The notes under the pieces are model-generated. The model did not search any database, was not told where the DNA came from, and saw only the letters and a program-made list of their open reading frames with translations. Both the position numbers and the translations under genes were made by a program. From Pristiophorus japonicus (taxonomy: Eukaryota), in the NCBI RefSeq assembly GCF_044704955.1, contig NC_091991.1, forward strand, positions 21,266,001-21,330,000: a stretch of 64,000 nt of DNA, read 5' to 3'. Of the stretch, positions 1,774-63,533 are shown piece after piece. Every line of letters begins with the position of its first letter. The first letter of the stretch is position 1.

Positions 1774-1908
1774 CTGAAGCGTGGTGATGTGCTTGTCGTT
1801 GAATTTGTTCTCACAGTATCTCAGCACCAGCGATGTCTTTCCCACGCAGCCTTCCCCTAGCAGGACAACTTTAAACGAGTAGGTTTTACCGCCTCCGACG
1901 CTCGCCAT
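1774..1908 (-). CDS. RAB21: RAB21 small GTPase, coding exon 1 (remaining exons lie left of the window)
   Basis: Manual translation from ATG 1908 gives MASVGGGKTYSFKVVLLGEGCVGKTSLVLRYCENKFNDKHITTLQ, then a phase-0 GT donor (CAG|GTTCGT) at 1773. The P-loop GEGCVGKT and flanks match Rab21 as I recall it. Confidence 0.97.
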
Positions 1909-14511: not shown

Positions 14512-17500
14512 AACATAGAAACATAGAAAATAGGTGCAGGAGCAGGCCATTCAGCCCTTCTAGCCTGCACCGCCATTCAATGAGTTCATGGCTGAACATG
14601 AAACTTCAGTACCCACTTCCTGCTTTCACGCCATACCCCTTGATCCCCCGAGTAGTAAGGACTTCATCTAACTCCCTTTTGAATATATTTAGTGAATTGG
14701 CCTCAACTACTTCCTGTGGTAGAGAATTCCACAGGTTCACCACTCTCTGGGTGAAGAAGTTTCTCCTTATCTCGGTCCTAAATGGCTTACCCCTTATCCT
14801 TAGACTGTGACCCCTGGTTCTGGACTTCCCCAACATTGGGAACATTCTTCCTGCATCCAACTTGTCCAAACCCGTCAGAATTTTAAACGTTTCTATGAGG
14901 TCCCCTCTCACTCTTCTGAACTCCAGTGAATACAAGCCCAGTTGATCCAGTCTTTCTTGATAGGTCAGTCCCACCATCCCGGGAATCAGTCTGGTGAATC
15001 TTCGCTGCACTCCCTCAATAGCAAGAATGTCCTTCCTCAAGTTAGGAGACCAAAACTGTACACAATACTCCAGGTGTGGCCTCACCAAGGCCCTGTACAA
15101 CTGTAGCAACACCTCCCTGCCCCTGTACTCAAATCCCCTCGCTATGAAGGCCAACATGCCATTTGCTTTCTTAACCGCCTGCTGTACCTGCATGCCAACC
15201 TTCAATGACTGATGTACCATGACACCCAGGTCTTGTTGCACCTTCCCTTTTCCTAATCTGTCACCATTCAGATAATAGTCTGTCTCTCTGTTTTTACCAC
15301 CAAAGTGGATAACCTCACATTTATCCACATTATACTTCATCTGCCACGCATTTGCCCACTCACCTAACCTATCCAAGTCACTCTGCAGCCTCATAGCATC
15401 CTCCTCGCAGCTCACACTGCCACCCAACTTAGTGTCATCCGCAAATTTGGAGATACTACATTTAATCCCCTCGTCTAAATCATTAATGTACAATGTAAAC
15501 AGCTGGGGCCCCAGCACAGAACCTTGCGGTACCCCACTAGTCACTGCCTGCCATTCCGAAAAGTACCCATTTACTCCTACTCTTTGCTTCCTGTCTGACA
15601 ACCAGTTCTCAATCCACGTCAGCACACTACCCCCAATCCCATGTGCTTTAACTTTGCACATTAATCTCCTGTGTGGGACCTTGTCGAAAGCCTTCTGAAA
15701 GTCCAAATATACCACATCAACTGGTACTCCTTTGTCCACTTTATTGGAAACATCCTCAAAAAATTCCAGAAGATTTGTCAAGCATGATCTCCCTTTCACA
15801 AATCCATGCTGACTTGGACCTATCATGTCACCATTTTCCAAATGCGCTGCTATGACATCCTTAATAATTGATTCCATCATTTTACCCACTACTGAGGTCA
15901 GGCTGACCGGTCTATAATTCCCTGCTTTCTCTCTCCCTCCTTTTTTAAAAAGTGGGGTTACATTGGCTACCCTCCACTCGATAGGAACTGATCCAGAGTC
16001 AATGGAATGTTGGAAAATGACTGTCAATGCATCCGCTATTTCCAAGGCCACCTCCTTAAGTACTCTGGGATGCAGTCCATCAGGCCCTGGGGATTTATCG
16101 GCCTTCAATCCCATCAATTTCCCCAACACAATTTCCCGACTAATAAAGATTTCCCTCAGTTCCTCCTCCTTAATAGACCCTCTGACCACTTTTATATCCG
16201 GAAGGTTGTTTGTGTCCTCCTTAGTGAATACTGAACCAAAGTACTTGTTCAATTGGTCTGCCATTTCTTTGTTCCCCGTTATGACTTCCCCTGATTCTGA
16301 CTGTAGGGGACCTAAGTTTGTCTTTACTAACCTTTTTCTCTTTACATACCTATAGAAACATTTGCAATCCGCCTTAATGTTCCCTGCAAGCTTCTTCTCG
16401 TATTCCATTTTCCCTGCCCTAATCAAACCCTTTGTCCTCCTCTGCTGAGTTCTAAATTTCTCCCAGTCCCCAGGTTCGCTGCTATTTCTGGCCAATTTGT
16501 ATGCCATTTCCTTGGCTTTAATACTATCCCTGATTTCCCTAGATAGCCACGGTTGAGCCACCTTCCCTTTTTTATTTTTACGCCAGACAGGAATGTACAA
16601 TTGTTGTAATTCATCCATGCGGTCTCTAAATGTCTGCCATTGCCCATCCACAGTCAACCCCTTAAGTATCATTAGCCAATCTATCTTAGCCAATTCATGC
16701 CTCATACCTTCAAAGTTACCCTTCTTTAAGTTCTGGACCATGGTCTCTGAATTAACTGTTTCATTCTCCATCCTAATGCAGAATTCCACCATATTATGGT
16801 CACTCTTCCCCAAGGGGCCTCGCACAATGAGATTGCTAATTAATCCTCTCTCATTACACAACACCCAGTCTAAGATGGCCTCCCCCCTAGTTGGTTCCTC
16901 GACATATTGGTCTAAAAAACCATCCCTTATGCACTCCAGGAAATCCTCCTCCACCGTATTGCTTCCAGTTTGGCTAGCCCAATCTATGTGCATATTAAAG
17001 TCACCCATTATAACTGCTGCACCTTTATTGCATGCACTCCTAATTTCATGTTTGATGCCCTCCCCAACATCACTACTACTGTTTGGAGGTCTGTACACAA
17101 CTCCCACTAACGATTTTTGCCCTTTAGTGTTCTGCAGCTCTACCCATATAGATTCCACATCATCCAAGCTAATGTCTTTCCTAACTATTGCATTAATCTC
17201 CTCTTTAACCAGCAATGCTACCCCACCTCCTTTTCCTTTTATTCTATCCTTCCTGAATGTTGAATACCCCTGGATGTTGAGTTCCCAGCCCTGATCATCC
17301 TGGAGCCACGTCTCCGTAATCCCAATCACATCATATTTGTTAACATCTATTTGCACAGTTAATTCATCCACCTTATTGCGGAAACTCCTTGCATTCAGAC
17401 ACAAAGCCTTCAGGCTTGCTTTTTTAACACCCTTTGTCCTTCTAGAATTTTGCTGTACAGTGGCCCTTTTTGTTCTTTGCCTCGGGTTTCTCTGCCCTCC

Positions 17501-17564
17501 ACTTTTCCTCATCTCCTTTCTGTCTTTTGCTTTTGCCTCATTTTTGTCTCCCTCTGTCTCCCTG
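14512..17564 (-). mobile_element. Young 5'-truncated CR1 LINE with complete ORF2
   Basis: 3' (TTCTATGT)n tail at 14512-14530, uninterrupted ORF2, truncated just upstream of ORF2; short (G)TTA duplication or microhomology at the junctions. Confidence 0.95.
14606..17512 (-). CDS. CR1 ORF2: APE endonuclease plus reverse transcriptase, 968 aa, intact
   Basis: Motifs GITETW, GDFN, SDH (APE) and [35 protein letters not shown] (RT); no internal stop. Confidence 0.93.
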   Translation of the reverse strand: MRKSGGQRNPRQRTKRATVQQNSRRTKGVKKASLKALCLNARSFRNKVDELTVQIDVNKYDVIGITETWLQDDQGWELNIQGYSTFRKDRIKGKGGGVALLVKEEINAIVRKDISLDDVESIWVELQNTKGQKSLVGVVYRPPNSSSDVGEGIKHEIRSACNKGAAVIMGDFNMHIDWASQTGSNTVEEDFLECIRDGFLDQYVEEPTRGEAILDWVLCNERGLISNLIVRGPLGKSDHNMVEFCIRMENETVNSETMVQNLKKGNFEGMRHELAKIDWLMILKGLTVDGQWQTFRDRMDELQQLYIPVWRKNKKGKVAQPWLSREIRDSIKAKEMAYKLARNSSEPGDWEKFRTQQRRTKGLIRAGKMEYEKKLAGNIKADCKCFYRYVKRKRLVKTNLGPLQSESGEVITGNKEMADQLNKYFGSVFTKEDTNNLPDIKVVRGSIKEEELREIFISREIVLGKLMGLKADKSPGPDGLHPRVLKEVALEIADALTVIFQHSIDSGSVPIEWRVANVTPLFKKGGREKAGNYRPVSLTSVVGKMMESIIKDVIAAHLENGDMIGPSQHGFVKGRSCLTNLLEFFEDVSNKVDKGVPVDVVYLDFQKAFDKVPHRRLMCKVKAHGIGGSVLTWIENWLSDRKQRVGVNGYFSEWQAVTSGVPQGSVLGPQLFTLYINDLDEGIKCSISKFADDTKLGGSVSCEEDAMRLQSDLDRLGEWANAWQMKYNVDKCEVIHFGGKNRETDYYLNGDRLGKGKVQQDLGVMVHQSLKVGMQVQQAVKKANGMLAFIARGFEYRGREVLLQLYRALVRPHLEYCVQFWSPNLRKDILAIEGVQRRFTRLIPGMVGLTYQERLDQLGLYSLEFRRVRGDLIETFKILTGLDKLDAGRMFPMLGKSRTRGHSLRIRGKPFRTEIRRNFFTQRVVNLWNSLPQEVVEANSLNIFKRELDEVLTTRGIKGYGVKAGSGY

Positions 17565-18649
17565 TTATGGGGAGCGGGCAGGGAAGTGGAGTTGAGTCCA
17601 TGATCAGATCAGCCATGATCTTATTAAATGGCGGAGCAGGCTCGAGGGGCCGAATGGCCTACTCCTGCTCCTATTTCGTGTGTTCTTGGAAGAAAAGACC
17701 AACATGGACCCACAATCAACCGGCCTGGATGATAATGGCAGGGGGGGGGGGGGGGGGTGTGGAAGACAGAAAAATAAAGTGTACTTTGTCTCTTCCCCTC
17801 CTTCAATATTACTACCATCTGAGGGCACATAGGATTAGGAGGGGAGGGAAAATGCAAGAGAAAGTACCACTTTTTTACCATTAGAAACAATGGTCAGTCA
17901 GCATTTGTAGAGTTTAGAAAGTTCGGGGTGATCTAATCGAGGTGTTTAAAATAAAATAATTAATTAGGGTAGATACAGAGTAACTATTTATTCTGATGGG
18001 GGAATCCATTGCAAGGGGGTATAATGTTAAAATTAGAGCGAGGCCATTTCGAAATTAAATAAAAAGCACTTTTTCCACACACATGATGAAACTCTCTCCC
18101 CCAAAAGGTGGAGGTACAGAGACAATTGAAATTTTCATGGCCAAGATTGATAGATTTGTTAGGCAAAGCTATCAAGGGATACTAAGAAAAGGCAGGTATT
18201 GGAATCGAGGTACAGACCTGCCATGATCTGACTAAATGGCCTTCTCATTATTGCATTCCTATAGTAACTGGTCGTATATGCCACAAGCCCCAGGTAAAAA
18301 TATTTCTCCTGCTTTGCTCTAAATCGCAGTCTTATCTTTACATCCCCTTGTTCTAGATTCCTCAATCACAGGTAGCAGTCCGTTTCTATCTATTCTGTCC
18401 CGTCCCATCATATTAAACATCACTATCAATTATCCCCTAATCTCCTCTGCTCGAACAAAAATATCGCCCATCTTGGAGAGCCTTTCCTCATGCCAGGCAG
18501 CATCCTAGTGAATCTGTGCTTTACCTACTTACTACTTATCGCTACTTGCTATGGTGTGGAGCACAAAACATCAACTGTGGTTTTAAAGTTTTATATAAAT
18601 CCACCAGTGCATTATTATTTTGAGATTCTGTAGGGGTAATTTTGAAAGT

Positions 18650-20637: not shown

Positions 20638-21020
20638 TTTATTGAACAAATATGTTTGCATAAAGTTGAAAGATTTGATTCACGCTATTGGCAGTGTTGA
20701 AGACAATCATACCATTAGATAAGATATAACTATCAGATTAGAAGCTACATTTTTATTTGAGTGATCAAAATATACCTGTACAATTGACAAAATAAAGTGA
20801 CAGCATAAATATTGGAAAAGTTTGCAACTATCCCATTGAATTCTTGAGGATTTTACCTAATAAAAGCACCCAGTTTAAAGTACAAATAGTCCTGAAGATA
20901 TAGAGATGGATATACATTTATATATTTTTTTTTTTATAAAAAAGACAGACTATGCATGTTTCTCTAAACACCAATAGTGTACAAGTTACCCCCTTCCTAA
21001 AGGAAAATCCCCAAATTAAG
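20638..21020 (-). promoter_or_regulatory. Putative 3'UTR of the Spo12-like gene with polyadenylation signals
   Basis: Non-repeat AT-rich DNA after the stop codon; AATAAA on minus at 20752-20757 and 20638-20643. Confidence 0.55.
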
Positions 21021-21135
21021 TTAACTGGTATTTCTTCCAAAAGAAAGTCTTTGTTCCAGATGAGTAAAGTCATTCTCTTTGTCTCCAAGAGTCAATTCAT
21101 GAACACGTTGGGCAATAATTTTGCTGCTTTGAAGC
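21021..21135 (-). CDS. Spo12-like protein, exon 5 (last coding exon; KEN box)
   Basis: Acceptor TGTGTCCTCAG|G; phase 2 matches exon 4; (E)LQSSKIIAQRVHELTLGDKENDFTHLEQRLSFGRNTS*. Confidence 0.72.
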
Positions 21136-21207
21136 CTGAGGACACATTTAAACAAACAGGTTATCACAGATGTTCCTAGATTTACTTTCTCAATTTGATA
21201 TTCAAAC

Positions 21208-21573
21208 TCATCATCATAGACAGTCCCTCGAAATCGAGGAAGACTTGCTGCCACTCCTAAAGTGAGTTCTTTGGTGGCTGAACAGTCCAATACGAGAGCC
21301 ACAGACTCTGTTGCAGGTGGGACAGATAGTTGCTGAGGGAAGGGGTGGGTGGGACTGGTTTGCCATACACTCTTTCCACCTGATTTCTGCATGCTTTTGG
21401 CGTTGAGACTCAAGGTACTCAGCGCCCTCTCGGATGCATTTCCTCCACTTAGGGCGGTCTTGGGCCAGGGACTCCTAGGTGTCAGTGGGGATGTCGCACT
21501 TTATCAGGGAGGCTTTGAGGGTGTCCTTGTAGCGTTTCCACTACCCACCTTTGGCTCGTTTGCCATGAAGGAG
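21208..21573 (-). mobile_element. RTE-clade LINE 3' fragment (intronic)
   Basis: (ATG)n tail and 3' region similar to the RTE copies at 29515-29751 and 41520-41910. Confidence 0.8.
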
Positions 21574-24276
21574 CTCAGTAGAGCATTATTCAAATTAGGC
21601 ATTAAATGTTTACCCATTATTCCAGTATTTGGGATGTTAATCTTATAACACAGCACATTAGAATGTGTGCCACTATATGACAAATCTAGCACTAGTATTA
21701 ACAGTGGGAATATGTGACCAAAGTACATCAATTTCAGCACCAATACAGACCTCTTGCTGCTTCAATTACTCCACAAATGCATCAGCCAGCTGGCAGTTTA
21801 ATAGTTAATTCAATAGTTCTGTTTTGTGTTCTAAATACCAAGCCAAGGAAAGTCAATGTTAAAGCAGCCATTCCTAGAACATATAATCTCTGAAAAAAAA
21901 GTCAACCACAAATTAAAGTTCACCGTCACTACCTTTGGGGAAGGGAAAGCAGGCCCACTTTGGTGCCCAGTCTGGAATTCCCAGCAATACCATGAAAAGG
22001 CTACAGTGTAGGCCTGTAGATGGGATAGCAGGTCTGCATTGAAAGACTTGAACCAAAATCAGAAATAATCCAAGAGGCTTGGCTGATACCACTTATCCTC
22101 GTAACAGCTCAACTTTCCTGCCAGATACTGAAGATTTAAAAAAAAATTAAATACCAGAGAAAGAAAGACATCATCATAGGCGGTCCCTCAAACGAGGATG
22201 ACTTGCTAAGACATACAAACTGGTAGAACAAGATTTCTTGGGAATCAACCACATTTTAAATCAAGAGCACTGAATAATTGAACCTGTCTGGAGAAAGTCC
22301 TCAACCAGGGACAAGAACTGTTCAAAGATCAATTTCTGCAGCTGGACATCTTCTGCTAAGAAAACTAAGCCCCCTGTGCATCCAATGGTACATAATACTG
22401 ATAAATTGTGTACCTTGCCTAAAGGTTGCTCCACCAGCTGGGCTCAAGACTACATGAAACACGATTCATTTCCTGAGCAAATACTTTATTACATCAATTT
22501 ATCACTGAGAACAACTGCTGGATCAGCAGCCAATAAGAGTGTGCAGCAAGGTTGCAGTGGATCCAGTCAGCCTTTTCTACTTGTTGCCCCTTGTTAAACC
22601 ATCCTCCTCCCACTACACTTCCTGGGTACAGGCTACAAGAGGTAGGTAGAATACATTTCCCAATAATCCCCCCCCCCAAAAAGACACCTTTTGAGAGATC
22701 ACAAGCAACAGATCAATCCTCAGCCGTGATCTGGCGTCGACATTCAATTCTCAGGTGGCCCAAAGTACAAATACGTTGGGAAAGTCTTCGATCATGTTAT
22801 CATAAGCAGTCCCTCGAAACAAGGATGACTTGCTTCCATGCCGAAAGCGGATGAGTTCACAGGTGTTTCAATGATATTACGGATCTTGAACTACATCCTG
22901 ACGGGTGGAAGAAGCCGATGCACGATTAAAAAAAAAAGATATAATAAATGTGTGGTGGCCGTTGCACCACACGAGCTTGACAGAGCTCGGTCTTCGTCCA
23001 GTGGCAAGGATTGACCAAGACGACTGGACTCTTCTGGGCCCCGATCACATCCCTCTACGAACTCTCACCGCTCCTGCTGTACTTGCCCGCACTGCAGTCA
23101 GCTGTCACCCTCCTGCAGCAGCACGCGCTGCTCCCTGCAGTGGTATGCCGCACCGAGTCCATTAAAACACAGAAAGCAGTCTGTGTATTGGAGGAGTATA
23201 TCAGAGAGCCATCTCGATCTCAATCTCTATCTCTCTCTCTGCAACTCAAACTGGGACTCTAATACTGCATCGGCGGTACAGAACCAGGAGCCACGTCGTG
23301 CGGGAAGAAGCTGCAAGCAAGTCCACGGGCAAACAGGGTGAGCATTGTCCACATCTACATATCCTTAAGACCACTTAGTTGTGTTTAGGGGCATTGTATG
23401 GCCTAGCCAAACCATAGGGATTTAGTCTGGGAAGGTTCTTTATTTATATACTGTATATTATGTTAGGCCGTGGTAACTTGACACGGCAGAGGCTTGTTGG
23501 ACAAGCCAGGGTTGTACTTTTGTACTGTATTATACCACTGTGTACTGTTTTACTAGTGGTGCAGTTGAACTTTATTAAACACTATACGGTTGAGCCCGAA
23601 AAATATTGTCCATGCTCCATAGTAATCCCTATCGTTCAGAACTTGCACTAAGAGGTATGTTTCGGTACACCCGAGCAAACCACTTACACCTCCTTCCGTG
23701 CTGTAAATTTCTATGATTGTGATATCAGGTGACCAATGGCAAATGGGGTGGGGCACCTTGATCATGGACATGTCCAATGACCAACGGAGAGTGTGGGATG
23801 GGGCGATCGGAGGCACGAGGTCATGTGATGAAATCTCCAACCAGAGTTGGCAATCATACCATCATCATAGGCAGTCCCTCGAAAATGAGGAAGACCCACC
23901 TCCACTCAAAGTGAGCACCCAGGCGACTGAACAGTCTAACACAGGAACCACAGTCTCTGCCACAGGTTCCTCTGGCTTGGCAGCTTTTGCAGCCAAGGTG
24001 GAATTGTAATTAAGTTACAAGATCCAACATGAAACTTAAAGTCACCTCTCTCCAATGGTGCACATCAAATATTAGGAGCAGTGATCAGACGTCATGCAAT
24101 TATCTAGAAATCAATATGCTGTACTATGACATGGCTTTTGGACTATAATTAATAATTAAGAGCATTTTATCAGTTCTTCAAAAAAGCCACCCCAACTGGT
24201 TACTACAGGTATTTGGATTCAGCTGTTGCATTCATGGGTCAATTTTACAGGGCCCAGTGGAAACTAGTGTTCACCG

Positions 24277-24719
24277 TGGTGCAGTTGGTAGCACCCTTGC
24301 CTTGGAGTCAGAAGGTTGTGGGTTCAAGTCCCACTCCAGAGAGACTGGAGCTAAAAAATCAAGGCCAACACTCAGTGCAAAACTGTGGGAGTGCTGCATT
24401 GTCGGAGGTGCTATCTTTTAGATGTGATGTTAAACCAAGGCCGCCTATGCTCCCTCAGGTGTATGCAAAGATCCCATGGCACTATTTCAAAGAGGTGCTA
24501 TCCCTGTATCCTGGTCAATATTTATCCCTCAATCAAACATAACAAAAACAGATTATCTGGTCATTATCACATTGCTGTTTGTGGGAGCTTGCTGTGCGCA
24601 AATTGGCTGCCGCATTTCCTACACTATAACAGTGACTACACTTCAAAAAGTCAAAAAATTGGCTGTAAAGCACTTTGGGGCATCTGATGGTCATGAAAGG
24701 CGCTATATAAATGCAAGTC
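24277..24719 (+). mobile_element. tRNA-derived Deu-domain SINE (SacSINE1-like); further copies at about 41912-42253 (-), 44830-45150 (-) and 56385-56790 (+)
   Basis: Pol III A/B-box head (TGGTGCAGTTGG..GGTTCAAGTCC), central GGGAGTGCTGCATTGTCGGAGGTG segment and L2-type tail GGCGCTATATAAATGCAAGT. Confidence 0.8.
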
Positions 24720-24853
24720 TGTTATTTTCCTCTTCATTTATTTAAGAAAATAATGCTGTTATTGAAAACTTAACATGCCATACAAGCCAAATATTTACAG
24801 AAGTGGCGTGTCTGATTAATGCCAAAAACTGCACATTACATCGGAGAACTTAC

Positions 24854-24937
24854 TCAGTAGCGTTCACATGCTTCGGCTTCATCAGCCTTTGTGAGCATGG
24901 AGATAGCATGCTGTCTGTTGGACTTTTGAAAAGTTTC
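24854..24937 (-). CDS. Spo12-like protein, exon 4 (Spo12 motif)
   Basis: Acceptor TTTTTCATGTCTAG|G, donor GA|GTAAGT, 84 nt, phase 2-2; (K)KLFKSPTDSMLSPCSQRLMKPKHVNAT(E). Confidence 0.85.
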   Translation of the reverse strand, partial: ETFQKSNRQHAISMLTKADEAEACERY

Positions 24938-25035
24938 CTAGACATGAAAAATAGCATTAGTTCTTCCAAATCAGTTATTCAGATATATAATATAATATAT
25001 ATATATTTTTTTTAAACTTAAAATACCCAACTTAC

Positions 25036-25135
25036 TTTTCCTGTGCCTGTTTTCTTTTTGTTAGACTTGGGGTTGGGGGCTGCTGATTTGGATCACTGTG
25101 CTTAGTCAAAGGTTTGCTTGTATTCATTTCAAAAT
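25036..25135 (-). CDS. Spo12-like protein, exon 3
   Basis: Acceptor TTTTTCTTCACCCCCACTAG|A, donor AA|GTAAGT, 100 nt, phase 1-2; (N)FEMNTSKPLTKHSDPNQQPPTPSLTKRKQAQE(K); 98-nt intron to exon 4. Confidence 0.82.
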
Positions 25136-26176
25136 CTAGTGGGGGTGAAGAAAAAGCAAGAAAAAAGGTTACAGTTGATACTATTCAATATATGCATCTA
25201 TAAATAATACAAAAAAAAGTGCTGGAAGCCATAATGCCATATTCCATTGACCTGGGGTGAGGGGCGGGGGGCAAGAGGGAGTAAAAATATACAAAAGGAA
25301 AGGTGGTGTTGCTTGAACAGCACCTGGGAGTGGCTTTGCAGTCACAAGTAAATGCTGAAAACTTGAAACATCTTCACCTGAACCATCTAAAACCTGGTAG
25401 AGGGAGAGAGAAGCAACCAAAGGTTTAACAAGGCTCAATACTGAGCAACTCTTGACCTCCTTCAGCTTTTCTGTCCTGCTACAATTTCCAGGCATTACCA
25501 AACTAATATTTCTTGATTTACCCAGACTTTGTACTCAATCTTGCTGGTGCTCTGTAGGGAGATCTTGGACCTTCAGCTTGATTCATCAATTCAAAAAAGC
25601 ACTGTTTGCACTATTGTTAGTGGATCACAAGTGTTGCAAGGCCAAGCAGTCACCACAATAATTCTGGTCTAGGAATCCAAATAAAGGGCTGAACACATTC
25701 CACAAATCCTATATTTGACATGGTGCTCGCAAAAGATGACCCAGTTTATGGATTTGACTTGATGCACACCAAAGATAACTAGTTTATTGGTTTAATAGCA
25801 TGTGACAGTCTCAACAATCACAGGTCACCCAGCAGCAGTCTAGTGACAAAAATGAGGGTGCCGAATTCTAAACATGCAAGTAAAACCACTCGTGTTAAAG
25901 CTAGAGCAGAAATTTGAACAGACAGTGAAGACCTGAGTTTTGAAGCATCATTTGAATAGTGGCATTTCAGAATTTCACATTTTGTATGCAATTAAAAGCT
26001 GCACATACTGGGATGCTAAAATGTATTTAATTACAGTCTGAGACACAACTTGCTGCACTCATCACAAATTTTTGAAACATCAAATTCTCAAAGTTGTATT
26101 AGATCAAGTTATTGCAAAGTTGTCAAAGTAGGTTGTGGAACAGTGAACACATTTGTACCATCCAGTTGCACCTTAC

Positions 26177-26192
26177 TTGGTGTAGTGCTCAT
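26177..26192 (-). CDS. Spo12-like protein, coding part of exon 2 (exon 26177-26266)
   Basis: Acceptor GATTTTTTAG|A at 26266; GCCATCATGA start context with A at -3 and an in-frame upstream TGA; MSTTP(N); donor CAA|GTAAGG, phase 1, matches exon 3. Confidence 0.7.
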
Positions 26193-28649
26193 GATGGCCT
26201 TGTGTTACTGCAGTCACACACTGCTTCCCAACTTAAGTTTTCAGGACTTGTCTCTTGCACAAAAGTCTAAAAAATCAATCCTCGAGGTTAATTAAAATCT
26301 GGGCAATTTCAATTTCTTTTTTTTAAAAAAACTTAATTTCTGATACATCAAAGTAAAACAAGCAGGAAATCTTAAAATGCTGGTCATATGATTAGGTAGC
26401 AGAACCACAAATTTGGATTACATATTGCATTGCAACAGATTAGGAAAGAGATCAGCATGTTTTATTGGATATGTTAAAACTGCCTATTCAGTGTTTGTAG
26501 TCAGTGAACTTTGTATCTGGCCTTGGCAAAGCTTCATCCAAGAGTACCAGGTTACATTTTGTAATACAGGTATCCAGGAGGGCTCAGAGGCTGATCCTGA
26601 GCTCGAGACATGTAGAGAGGATAATATCAACTACCCTTGGGTTCAAAGAGGATGCCGGGTCAGATATTTAATAGCAGATCTTCAGATTTTGTTTTATGAA
26701 AAATTTGGACTCAGGATAATTAAGCACAGGATTCAAGGAGTAGCATTCACAATTTAAAGTTAAAGGATACAAAAAGAAAGTAGGAACTTTAGAATTTTAG
26801 AATGTTGAACCAAATTGCCAGCAGGGAAGGGAAGCTGGAACAGTGAACCATGACAGATTTTGAAAAAGGATTGGATGAATTATCAAGAAAGAGGATACAT
26901 AGCTTTAAGTTTGACAATCATACCAAGGAAACTGATGGATGGCTTGGAAAGATAGGCTAGACAAACCCAGTGATCTTCTAAAACCTAGAACATTACTTTG
27001 GCAAATCACATTTTATCATGCCTGCAGGGACACTTATGAAATCTGTGACCATTGCAAAAGTCACAGGCATTGCATTCCCAAGGACTGTGGGTAAATGCAG
27101 CTGTACAGATCTTGGAAGGTTCTTCAGCCTAGAGTTAACTAATCAGTTGAGCAGCACATTTGGCCTCAAGTGTCCTAAGCTAGGGGGATAGCCAAGGTCC
27201 CCCACACCAGATAAGATCTGCAATCATGCTCTGAGAGTAGCATCATCTTCCCACAACCTAGACTCAAGAATAGTCACTTGGGCAAGGAGGGCTTTCAGCT
27301 CCCCTAAACTATATTCTAATACACAAGTCAGTGCCTTTAGCATCAGAAAAGTGATCTCTCCCATACCCAAAAACAGGTTAGGCAACCTTAACAATTCTCA
27401 CATCTGCTCAGTGAGGTGTATTCATGAAACAAACAAAACAAAAATAGTTTTATTGCCCATTTCATGTCTTTTAAAAAAAAATCAATTTGTATAGTTTCCT
27501 GCCATTTTGCCATTAATGCTACTGGTCTCAATTTTTGTAGCACTCACCAGCAACAAGTTTTACATTAAGTAAGACAGACAAAAAGAAATATAGCTGTATA
27601 ACTAAATTTATACAGGAAAAAATTACCAATGAAGCAAGACTTAAACAAAAAAAAAAATTAACACAAAAAAGCACCAAAGGTTGAGAACCACTGTAATGTA
27701 CACAAATCACTAAAAGCTGGTGCACACATACAAAAAGAACTCAAAAGTCTAATGGAATGCTTATTTATCACAAGGGGTGGAAATACAATAGGCGAGGACG
27801 TGATGCTTCAGGTGTGCCCGTCAGACCCCATCTGGCGGAATGCGTTCAATTTCAGGCACCCCAGGCCAGGAACGATTATATTTGCCTTGGAACAGATACA
27901 GCAGATTAACCAGAATACCAAGATTTAAAAAGGGTTAAAATTAATGAGAACAATTTAAGCAGAAAGACAAGCTCCCTCCCCTCAAATCACCAAAACAAAC
28001 AAAGTGGCTGAGACATGCCAGAAAATAGTCAACTGGCTCTAGACATAAACCTCAGGAACACAGCACAAGCCATTTGGTCATCAAACTCCCATCCCCTCCA
28101 AATGTTACACAGCCGTCAACCCGCCTCATATATACACTTTATAAGTTAATATGCTTAACTATTGCAAAAAAAAAAAACTATTGAAAATACATAAAAGATA
28201 AAGCATATTAGAACACTGATTTGAAGTATGATGTGCAAGCGACTAATAAATTATGCATTAATCCTGTTTGAACAGGAGTAAGGAACCACTATCAGTAACT
28301 TTGAAGGAGAGCACCACTTTGTCAGGAGCAATGGCTTACACAAATTAAACCAATATTTTCGGAGACCACATTTTATTTTTTTAATGAAACTTGGTGTCAT
28401 TGCCAATAAAAGACGGATTTATATAACGCCTTTTACCACCACCGGGCGTCTCAAAGTGCTTTCCAGCCAATGAAGTACTTTTGGAGGGTAGTCACTGTTG
28501 TAATGTAGTTAACAATTCTCTTACAAGTCGGTAACAACCCGCCACAAAATATCAGCAATTTTATTTAAATCGAGCATCTCATCCACAAACCAACAATTTA
28601 CATTTGCGTGTAGTCTCACGGTGTTTTAGATAAAAAGAAACCATCTCAC

Positions 28650-28705
28650 CACTTGTTTCCCTGTCGGACAGTCCACAAACACCTCTGAGCCCACGGTTTG
28701 TGGCG
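28650..28705 (-). other. Putative non-coding exon 1 of the Spo12-like gene (start approximate)
   Basis: Donor AAGTG|GTGAGA at 28649; TATA-like CATAAAA on minus at 28726-28732; lies at the edge of the CpG island. Confidence 0.6.
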
Positions 28706-29030
28706 AGCTGCCTGGCAGCCGCCAGTTTTATGGCCGTTCGCGTCACGCTCCGCGCGTCATCGGCTCTGCCGCACCCCATTGGCCGTTCCCGCGGGCCGTT
28801 CAAATCATCACAAGATTCCGAACGGTTGGCGCCGCGCGCGAGGTACAAAAATCCCCCCCCCGGCCCGGCAACCTTCAGTCAGCAGGCGGGCGGGGCCGCG
28901 AGCGCCGTTTCCATAGCGACCGCTGCAGCCGCCAGGTAACTGCCAGCTCCTAGCGCAGTGCACAGGCTGCGGCCGTTTTGTTTTGCCCAGTGTGACTGAC
29001 GCTAGCTCGCCCTCGGTCCCGGTCCCGAGA
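28700..29030. promoter_or_regulatory. CpG-island promoter, probably bidirectional, with cell-cycle and RFX motifs
   Basis: CCAAT (minus 28778-28782), E2F-like TTCCCGC (28786-28792) and TTGGCGC (28826-28832), CHR TTTGAA (minus 28799-28804), GGCCGTT x4, GC boxes near 28885-28896, X-box GTTTCCATAGCGAC (28907-28920), plus-strand donor CAG|GTAACT at 28936. Confidence 0.8.
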
Positions 29031-29751
29031 AACAAACATTTTTCCTGCAAGTGCTCCTCTCCCTCTTATGTTCAAGGAGACACAACAAATAGAATAATTT
29101 AGACATCAGTTCTGAAGAAAGGTTGTAGAATCATAGAAGTTTAGAACACAGAAAGAGGCCATTTCGGCACATCGTGCCTGCGCCGGCCGAAAAAGAGCTA
29201 TCCAGGCTAATCCCACTTTCCAGCTCTTGGTCCCCAGCCTTGCAGGTAAGGGCACTTCAAGAAAGAAAGACTTGCATTTGTACAGCACTTTTCACGACCA
29301 CCAGACCTCCCAAAGCACTTTACAGCCAATGAAGTGTAGTTACTGTTCAAGAAGAGCGTTGGTACGATGACACAGTCCTGCTTGACCGCGGTCCGGACGT
29401 GGATTGGGCCTGTGGTGGATCCGTTTGTCAGGATCACGACTTTCTTGATCTTCCTTGCTGTAATGCTCCATCTCACTCTCAGCAAGCTCCCCGCTGGAGT
29501 GGAACTAAACTCCATCATCATCATAGGCAGTCCCTCAGAATCGAGGAAGACTTGCTTCCACTCTTAAAATGAGTCCTTAGGTGGCTGAACAGTCCAATAC
29601 GAGAACCACAGTCCCTGTCGCAGGTGGGACAGATAGTCGTTGAAGGAAAGGGAGGGTGGGACTGTTTTGCCGCATGCTCTTTCCGCTGCCCGCTCCTGGT
29701 TTCTGCATGCAGTCGGCGACGAGACTCGAGGTGCTCAGCGCCCTCCCGGAT

Positions 29752-63359: not shown

Positions 63360-63533
<174 letters not shown>

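Follow-up and report, generated by a model that had tools for sequence, protein, structure and literature searches.

An undescribed Spo12-family gene in the shark Pristiophorus japonicus and its possible relation to PP2A-B55

It has long been open whether animals possess an equivalent of the Spo12/FEAR step of yeast, where Spo12 acts as a Cdk1-activated regulator of cell division. The question is taken up here for a stretch of 64,000 nucleotides (nt) of the shark Pristiophorus japonicus (NCBI RefSeq assembly GCF_044704955.1, contig NC_091991.1, positions 21,266,001 to 21,330,000; referred to here as the window, in whose own coordinates all positions are given). A first-pass annotation, made from the sequence alone, described in it a small minus-strand gene with a Spo12-like motif; we ask whether this is a gene, whether it belongs to the Spo12 family, and what its product might do. 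We conclude, with very little residual doubt, that it is a single-copy, spliced and conserved vertebrate gene of the Spo12 family. It is an undescribed vertebrate member of a known family that was previously studied in yeasts only, and it has features of an animal branch.

Re-derivation of the splice ends and the frame returns the four exons that the first-pass annotation had described: the minus-strand segments have GT donors and AG acceptors and phases 1, 2 and 2, and together they give a frame of 315 nt and 104 amino acids (aa) with one stop. Exons 2 to 4 are represented in contigs from two public runs of one study (X1 and X2), the type of which is not on record and whose RNA origin is inferred from the spliced joints. 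The features concerned are these:

25036..25135, minus strand: exon 2, with AG/GT ends, spliced to exon 3 in X1 and X2; 88% to Chiloscyllium residues 1-32
24854..24937, minus strand: exon 3, the Spo12 domain core, with the PF05032 match; both junctions are present in contigs
21021..21135, minus strand: exon 4, coding part up to the stop, with an AG acceptor; 76% to Chiloscyllium residues 59-92
20752..21020, minus strand: 3' untranslated region, with AATAAA at 20752-20757; an X1 contig extends to 20749, just beyond AATAAA

One contig in each of the two runs joins exons 2, 3 and 4 with introns 2 and 3 removed exactly, the joints lying at 24936/25035 and 21134/24853 and reading CT..AC on the plus strand. 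These contigs have depths of 207.5 and 90.1, as against about 3 to 11 for the intronic pieces listed, contig depth being no measure of expression. Exon 4 is covered by contigs of both runs with 0 differing letters. When the Chiloscyllium orthologue is used as query in a protein search of the whole 5.92-Gb genome, just the three exons of this locus are returned, and because there is no second, intronless copy in that search the joints come most simply from mRNA. The junctions of the first-pass annotation are thus borne out in part: those of exons 2-3 and 3-4 are present in both runs, but the joint of exon 1 to exon 2 (25135/26177) is not among the contig joints listed. Two TTTTAT elements in the 3' untranslated region are about the expectation for an AT-rich stretch and were not used.

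Membership of the Spo12 family, previously proposed from the motif, is upheld both by an intron position shared with fungal-type loci (see below) and by Pfam. Exon 3 alone matches PF05032 (Spo12) with 32.8 bits and an E value of 6.5e-8 over profile positions 2-19 of 35, above the gathering cut-off of 20.5 bits, which is passed by 13 of 13 proteins tested; exons 2 and 4 have no Pfam match up to an E value of 10. Two further shark proteins emerged from word searches, an exhaustive phmmer search of 1.84 billion representatives gave 11 matches (sturgeon, frog with two isoforms, two mites, one sponge and five further records), and a profile search, from which 42 of 813 candidates were kept, adds more mites as well as sponges (Geodia and Dysidea) and fungi (Orbilia and Eremothecium). 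The window protein has 83/96 and 77/92 aligned residues identical to those of the two other sharks (86% for Scyliorhinus), 39/75 to those of the sturgeon and 34/79 to those of the frog. The vertebrates named among the matches are the fishes Scyliorhinus, Chiloscyllium and Acipenser/Huso and the frog Pelobates, and their hypothetical proteins GCB63542.1 (Scyliorhinus torazame), GCC22448.1 (Chiloscyllium punctatum), KAK1169233.1 (Acipenser), KAK6488313.1 (Huso) and CAH2277898.1/CAH2277899.1 (Pelobates) are, by sequence, orthologues of the window protein. These share 39-86% identity with it over aligned residues, all those tested pass PF05032, and they are unnamed and unstudied; the database entries of the relatives already carry the PF05032 label and are called hypothetical. 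The N-terminus of the Scyliorhinus protein differs from that of the window protein and is probably mispredicted.

No named mammal, bird or teleost is among the matches of the word, phmmer and profile searches, which is not proof of loss because the profile search missed two members of its own query (P0003 and P0005) and small genes frequently escape annotation. In the Atlas, the closest clusters are plant and fungal Spo12 clusters (feature score 0.89, a lead only). The first-pass annotation saw the gene as possibly part of a module thought to be mainly fungal; the family is neither mainly fungal nor peculiar to sharks, as it is also found in sturgeons, a frog, mites and sponges, and Streptophyta is the commonest phylum of the Atlas Spo12 clusters. 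The first-pass annotation knew of no characterised vertebrate Spo12 orthologue, and the literature we found describes none: no title or abstract start among the matches listed is on an animal Spo12, and the phrases Spo12 family, domain, -like, homolog and ortholog return yeast studies only, in a coverage outside which most subscription journals lie.

Other searches gave little. The 12 pattern matches in viral contigs include 0 relatives, no Protein Data Bank (PDB) chain matches the family profile at E up to 1, the Atlas has no usable match outside the PF05032 clusters, and the Atlas structure matches all have template modelling (TM) scores of 0.31 or less. A PF05032 family search of the P. japonicus genome returned zero matches, even at this locus, and zero in 14 controls, and is insensitive. 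A C5orf34-like_N match to the Chiloscyllium protein (P0002; E 0.023, 15.2 bits against a cut-off of 27) was rejected. Some database labels also deserve comment. The 118-aa Dermatophagoides protein XP_027197995.1 (P0026), a mite member of the family, carries the name 'probable serine/threonine-protein kinase cdc7', apparently by misannotation, and UniRef100_A0A7C9CFH1 (P0051), labelled as the cactus Opuntia, falls in a 90% cluster with the spider-mite protein P0013 and is probably mite contamination.

The position of intron 3 bears on common descent. In the shark its donor lies 71 nt after the first serine codon, in phase 2. A metagenome scan yielded 15 loci from 139 pattern matches, with taxa inferred from sequence type only, and in three of these (L009, L017 and L018) a donor lies at the same base without gaps, each with an intron of 58-74 nt, a branch point and an open next exon. 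Their longer Pfam match marks all three as fungal-type. Since L017 and L018 are nearly the same sequence (66/71 nt), the three amount to two independent cases, which perhaps go back to a single fungal inheritance. In two sponge-type loci the phase-2 donor lies at 83 (L007) or 68 (L008), and none of the other ten loci has a donor at 71. An AG is present at the shark acceptor place in 3/15 loci, of which just L007, with its acceptor at the place of shark intron 2, counts as shared, because L010 and L011 read through as coding; the acceptor of L008 is one codon nearer. The shared intron position supports descent over a convergent motif. In a Pfam test of 11 sequences, among them 9 of the 15 loci, 10 exceed the PF05032 cut-off and L014 falls below it at 19.8 bits. 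Loci L012, L014, L015 and L016 have a divergent motif without the basic residue before L; L012 and L016 pass the cut-off. These loci are possibly from other eukaryote lineages.

The 5' end of the gene requires revision, and the following features are involved:

26177..26192, minus strand: exon 1 of the first-pass annotation, in frame, donor score 8.6, single copy in the genome, unsupported by contigs
25125..25127, minus strand: probable start ATG within exon 2; the matching Met starts the Chiloscyllium, sturgeon and frog models
28501..29000, no strand assigned: CpG island, probable promoter, observed/expected CpG 1.13, GC content 0.56
donor at 28650, minus strand: candidate end of a non-coding first exon, score 7.4, inside the CpG island

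The X2 contig is 576 nt long, and exons 4, 3 and 2 account for 516, leaving 60 nt beyond the exon-2 acceptor. The bin 25088-25375 has a depth of 15.0, consistent with cover stopping exactly at this acceptor, and the bin 25952-26239 reads 0 as against about 19 computed if the 60 extra nt were exon 1, so in the X2 sample exon 2 is joined to something other than exon 1. Missing contig cover over exon 1 is not evidence by itself, and the 60-nt arithmetic alone is used. Because this arithmetic excludes exon 1 in X2 and the Chiloscyllium, sturgeon and frog gene models start at the Met equivalent to ATG 25127, the main product is probably a protein of 96 aa from that ATG, the first 8 residues of the 104-aa peptide probably lying outside it. 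The sites originally numbered S44/S51 then become S36/S43, with a third Thr-Pro (TP) site at T19. Exon 1 may be an alternative exon, since it is in frame and has a good donor, the second best between 25136 and 31000. The best candidate for the upstream partner of exon 2 would be a non-coding exon ending at 28650; the joint of the two is not among the contig joints listed. The bin 28544-28831 has contig cover in both runs, and 28540-29100 is single copy in the genome.

We note that the strongest minus-strand donor from exon 2 to 31000 is at 27548 (score 10.0), a possible further 5' exon, and that a 340-nt X1 contig lies over the far side of the CpG island (28908-29100) with a good plus-strand donor after it near 28936, possibly reflecting a divergent transcript that shares the CpG-island promoter. 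The Scyliorhinus N-terminus matches the CpG-island exon over 4 residues only (E 1.3), and this match was rejected.

The protein itself has few parts, which are located as follows:

24883..24924, minus strand: core motif S-P-T-D-x3-S-P-C-[ST]-x2-L, with S36 (24922-24924) and S43 (24901-24903)
25047..25073, minus strand: TP plus basic patch (T19-Q27), a third Cdk-type site identified from alignments, starting a predicted helix, in animal members
21072..21080, minus strand: KEN, residues 78-80, a candidate APC/C (anaphase-promoting complex/cyclosome) degron, with KEN in the tail of 13/50 relatives
21039..21050, minus strand: R-L-S-F near the C-terminus, a weak candidate cyclin-docking LxF in which 1/3 flanking positions fit, in sharks only

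The Spo12 motif and its 7-residue serine spacing are present as the first-pass annotation described, and S36/S43 correspond to S. pombe S47/S54 and S. cerevisiae S118/S125. Across all six frames of the window there is a single occurrence of the core pattern. In the 50 relatives fetched (P0001-P0050; eight cluster members that came later are excluded) S-P-T-D-x3-S-P-C does not vary and is followed by [ST]-x-x-[LI], a constancy partly built into the search. The TP-basic segment lies about 17 residues upstream of the core in most animal members. A structure model of the Chiloscyllium protein predicts a small disordered protein (predicted TM score 0.29) with helices at 20-30 and 44-50, the latter following the second Ser-Pro (SP) site, and a predicted local distance difference test score of 87 over residues 41-50; the KEN box sits in a region predicted to be disordered. 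The 13 tail KEN motifs compare with 1.2 expected from shuffles and are found in vertebrates, sponges and one mite, and in L008, L017 and L018 the exon that follows likewise has a KEN. The two Pelobates isoforms (P0004 and P0005) have their first 59 residues in common and KEN is present in the 80-aa form only, so splicing may drop the degron. A subgroup with long acidic N-termini (P0011, P0025, P0027-P0031, P0033, L004 and L005) mostly ends 7 residues past the core helix, which suggests a minimal unit of core plus TP-basic helix. An R-V-x-x-L in exon 4 was considered as a FAM122A-like B55 motif and rejected, as its R is Q in both other sharks.

A framework for the function of such a protein comes from a 2025 preprint on S. 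pombe, where Cdk1 reportedly phosphorylates Spo12 at S54, after which Spo12 encounters Pab1/B55 and inhibits PP2A stoichiometrically (bioRxiv 10.1101/2025.10.28.685054). As reported there, Pab1/B55 is the sole TurboID partner that depends on S54, loss of Pab1 raises S54 phosphorylation, and pab1 deletion is a suppressor. AlphaFold3 docks residues 43-74, modelled in both yeasts, with S47 placed in the active site and pS54 in a basic patch that lies between B55 and the catalytic subunit (same preprint). Counted from the first serine, the yeast docking stretch spans -4 to +27 and shark exon 3 spans -4 to +23. More general support comes from the finding that B55 accepts short helices of varied sequence (PMC11446282) and from the naming of budding-yeast Spo12 as a known APC substrate (PMC3128521). 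A yeast-type mechanism is the best reading for the shark protein because both serines, their spacing, the following helix and the basic residues after the helix are kept, and by this analogy we give a probability of roughly 0.55 that it inhibits PP2A-B55 as in yeast.

A plausible scenario is that at mitotic or meiotic entry Cdk1-cyclin B would phosphorylate S43 and S36, perhaps primed via T19, and that the phosphorylated core and the helix after S43 would dock between the B55 and catalytic subunits of PP2A. With pS36 occupying the active site and pS43 the basic patch, the phosphatase would be blocked by a slowly turned-over substrate, giving a direct positive feedback on Cdk1 that bypasses Greatwall and ENSA/ARPP19. 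At exit PP2A-B55 would strip the phosphates and APC/C would remove the protein via its KEN box. Phosphorylation, B55 binding, inhibition, APC/C turnover and a role in division are thus all ascribed to the shark protein by analogy.

Several observations weigh against this scenario. The yeast mechanism comes from one preprint, in the available parts of which no direct phosphatase inhibition assay appears, and S. pombe Spo12 levels show no major cell-cycle change, which argues against a general APC/C step (bioRxiv 10.1101/2025.10.28.685054). The KEN-bearing sequences are related, so the count of 13/50 overstates their independence, and KEN is absent from most mite-type members. The PF05032 match spans positions 2-15 to 2-19 in animal proteins (2-28 in the sturgeon) as against 1-35 and 2-32 in fungal controls; positions of about 20-35 are missing in animal members, and with this short match and a proline often after the first helix, part of the fungal docking surface is missing. 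Finally, the missing positions include the LxF of budding yeast, which the shark protein does not have where fungi have it.

Among the other explanations, an unlikely one is that in animals the protein took on a role other than cell division (under MAPK or stress control, for example) or is a dispensable relic vanishing in many lineages. The patchy range, with a few fish genera, Pelobates and no named mammal, bird or teleost among the matches, would fit, SP sites also suit the established consensus of ERK or p38, and yeast deletion has little phenotype (bioRxiv 10.1101/2025.10.28.685054); however, high identity among sharks, intact frames and the invariant core argue for purifying selection, and a link to the cell cycle is indicated by KEN and the three Cdk-type sites. 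As the search noted above missed even P0003 and P0005 of its own query alignment, absence is not demonstrated.

Slightly less probable again is that the main target is not PP2A-B55 but another phosphatase or phospho-reader, such as PP4, which would bind the F-x-S-P overlapping the first site. FxxP is a PP4 docking motif, and it is created in 39/50 relatives by an F two residues ahead of the first serine; the animal proteins are also without half of the fungal domain. That F is missing in 11/50 relatives, though, no study centred on a link of Spo12 with Psy2/Pph3 is among the literature matches listed, and Pab1 alone was S54-dependent in the TurboID screen (bioRxiv 10.1101/2025.10.28.685054).

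The principal idea of the first-pass annotation, a FEAR-like factor that frees or activates CDC14 from a nucleolar anchor, we consider quite improbable. Net1 and Fob1 are yeast proteins. Both serines required for Cdc14 release in budding yeast are conserved (PMC6620034), but in S. pombe the localisation of Clp1 is not under Spo12 control, and the FEAR role itself is put down to PP2A inhibition in the preprint (bioRxiv 10.1101/2025.10.28.685054). PP2A-B55 is therefore a likelier target than Cdc14, and PP2A was already among the pull-downs that the first-pass annotation named. That the exons or the motif arose by chance and there is no gene can be set aside: the profile match has just 18 residues and the records of X1 and X2 give no run type, but two introns are exactly spliced in both runs, independent gene models exist in other species, and the genomic locus is single.

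A broader proposal is that vertebrates kept, beside ENSA/ARPP19 and FAM122A, a third class of PP2A-B55 inhibitor, a Spo12 orthologue with an intron ancestral to animals and fungi, operated directly by Cdk1, free of Greatwall and destroyed through KEN and APC/C, a proposal we make tentatively and at somewhat less than even odds. Such a gene may have been missed so far, being multi-exon and of fewer than 100 codons, and may lie unannotated between TMEM19 and RAB21 elsewhere, including in the frogs used for egg extracts.

The position of the gene between TMEM19 and RAB21, as first proposed, is correct in that the following exons flank it:

1774-1908, minus strand: RAB21 exon 1, from sequence features and a Pfam match
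63363-63533, minus strand: last TMEM19 exon, from sequence features and a DUF92 match

The TMEM19 piece matches DUF92 with E 0.0002 and 21.1 bits, below the whole-protein cut-off of 27.5, and both gene names are assigned from sequence features plus Pfam matches. All three genes are on the minus strand, and TMEM19 and RAB21 are given as neighbours of tph2 in tetrapods (PMC6470480).

Transposable elements make up other features of the window, and their identities are presumed from sequence features. There is a CR1-like long interspersed nuclear element with an open frame of 1000 aa (14606-17608, minus strand) encoding endonuclease and reverse transcriptase, broken CR1-like copies lie at about 33-35, 45.5-47.4, 49-52 and 60-62.8 kb, and broken pieces of gypsy-like long terminal repeat retrotransposons, with fragments of gag, protease, reverse transcriptase and integrase, lie at about 4.7-11.7, 31.4-32.8 and 37.4-39.9 kb.

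Comparison with known systems places the shark protein closest to the yeast Spo12 proteins without making it identical to them. S. pombe Spo12 (Q10189) likewise has about 90 aa, is disordered and has an SP pair 7 apart (S47/S54, equivalent to S36/S43) with a helix after the second; it differs in having two helices in the conserved fungal stretch and a function tested there, in yeast, whereas in the shark protein the profile match stops after position 19 of 35 and a TP-basic helix is added upstream. S. cerevisiae Spo12/Bns1 of the FEAR network has the same spacing at S118/S125, and its status as an APC substrate in yeast parallels the KEN box in the shark. In budding yeast, Spo12 docks on Clb2 through an LxF situated 20-40 aa from the sites (PMC6620034); the LxF of Eremothecium is at +29, and the shark R-L-S-F is at +52, fits 1/3 flanks and is absent in the sturgeon and frog. 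By its sequence the shark protein is not classed as a fungal-type or FEAR component, for want of the second domain half and of an LxF at the fungal place.

ENSA/ARPP19 (Igo1) and FAM122A resemble the proposed Spo12 mode as small disordered stoichiometric inhibitors with short helices, but ENSA/ARPP19 require Greatwall whereas Spo12 is a direct Cdk1 target. No sequence match to ENSA, ARPP19 or FAM122A was found in Pfam at E up to 10 for the three exons or 0.1 for P0001/P0002, or in the PDB, and the preprint likewise states no sequence relation of yeast Spo12 to them (bioRxiv 10.1101/2025.10.28.685054). The same preprint proposes FAM122A as the counterpart in complex eukaryotes and considers that the Spo12 family is perhaps wider and hard to find by sequence; its main text gives no animal homologue and does not use the words human, vertebrate, metazoa, animal or plant, and the extended figures, including a ConSurf conservation panel, might list animal sequences. 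Here there is a plain sequence homologue with its two regulatory serines invariant; in a shark it is spliced, in sturgeons and a frog its annotation is that of a hypothetical protein, and the shark gene provides a direct route for asking whether vertebrates retained a Cdk1-operated Spo12 switch.

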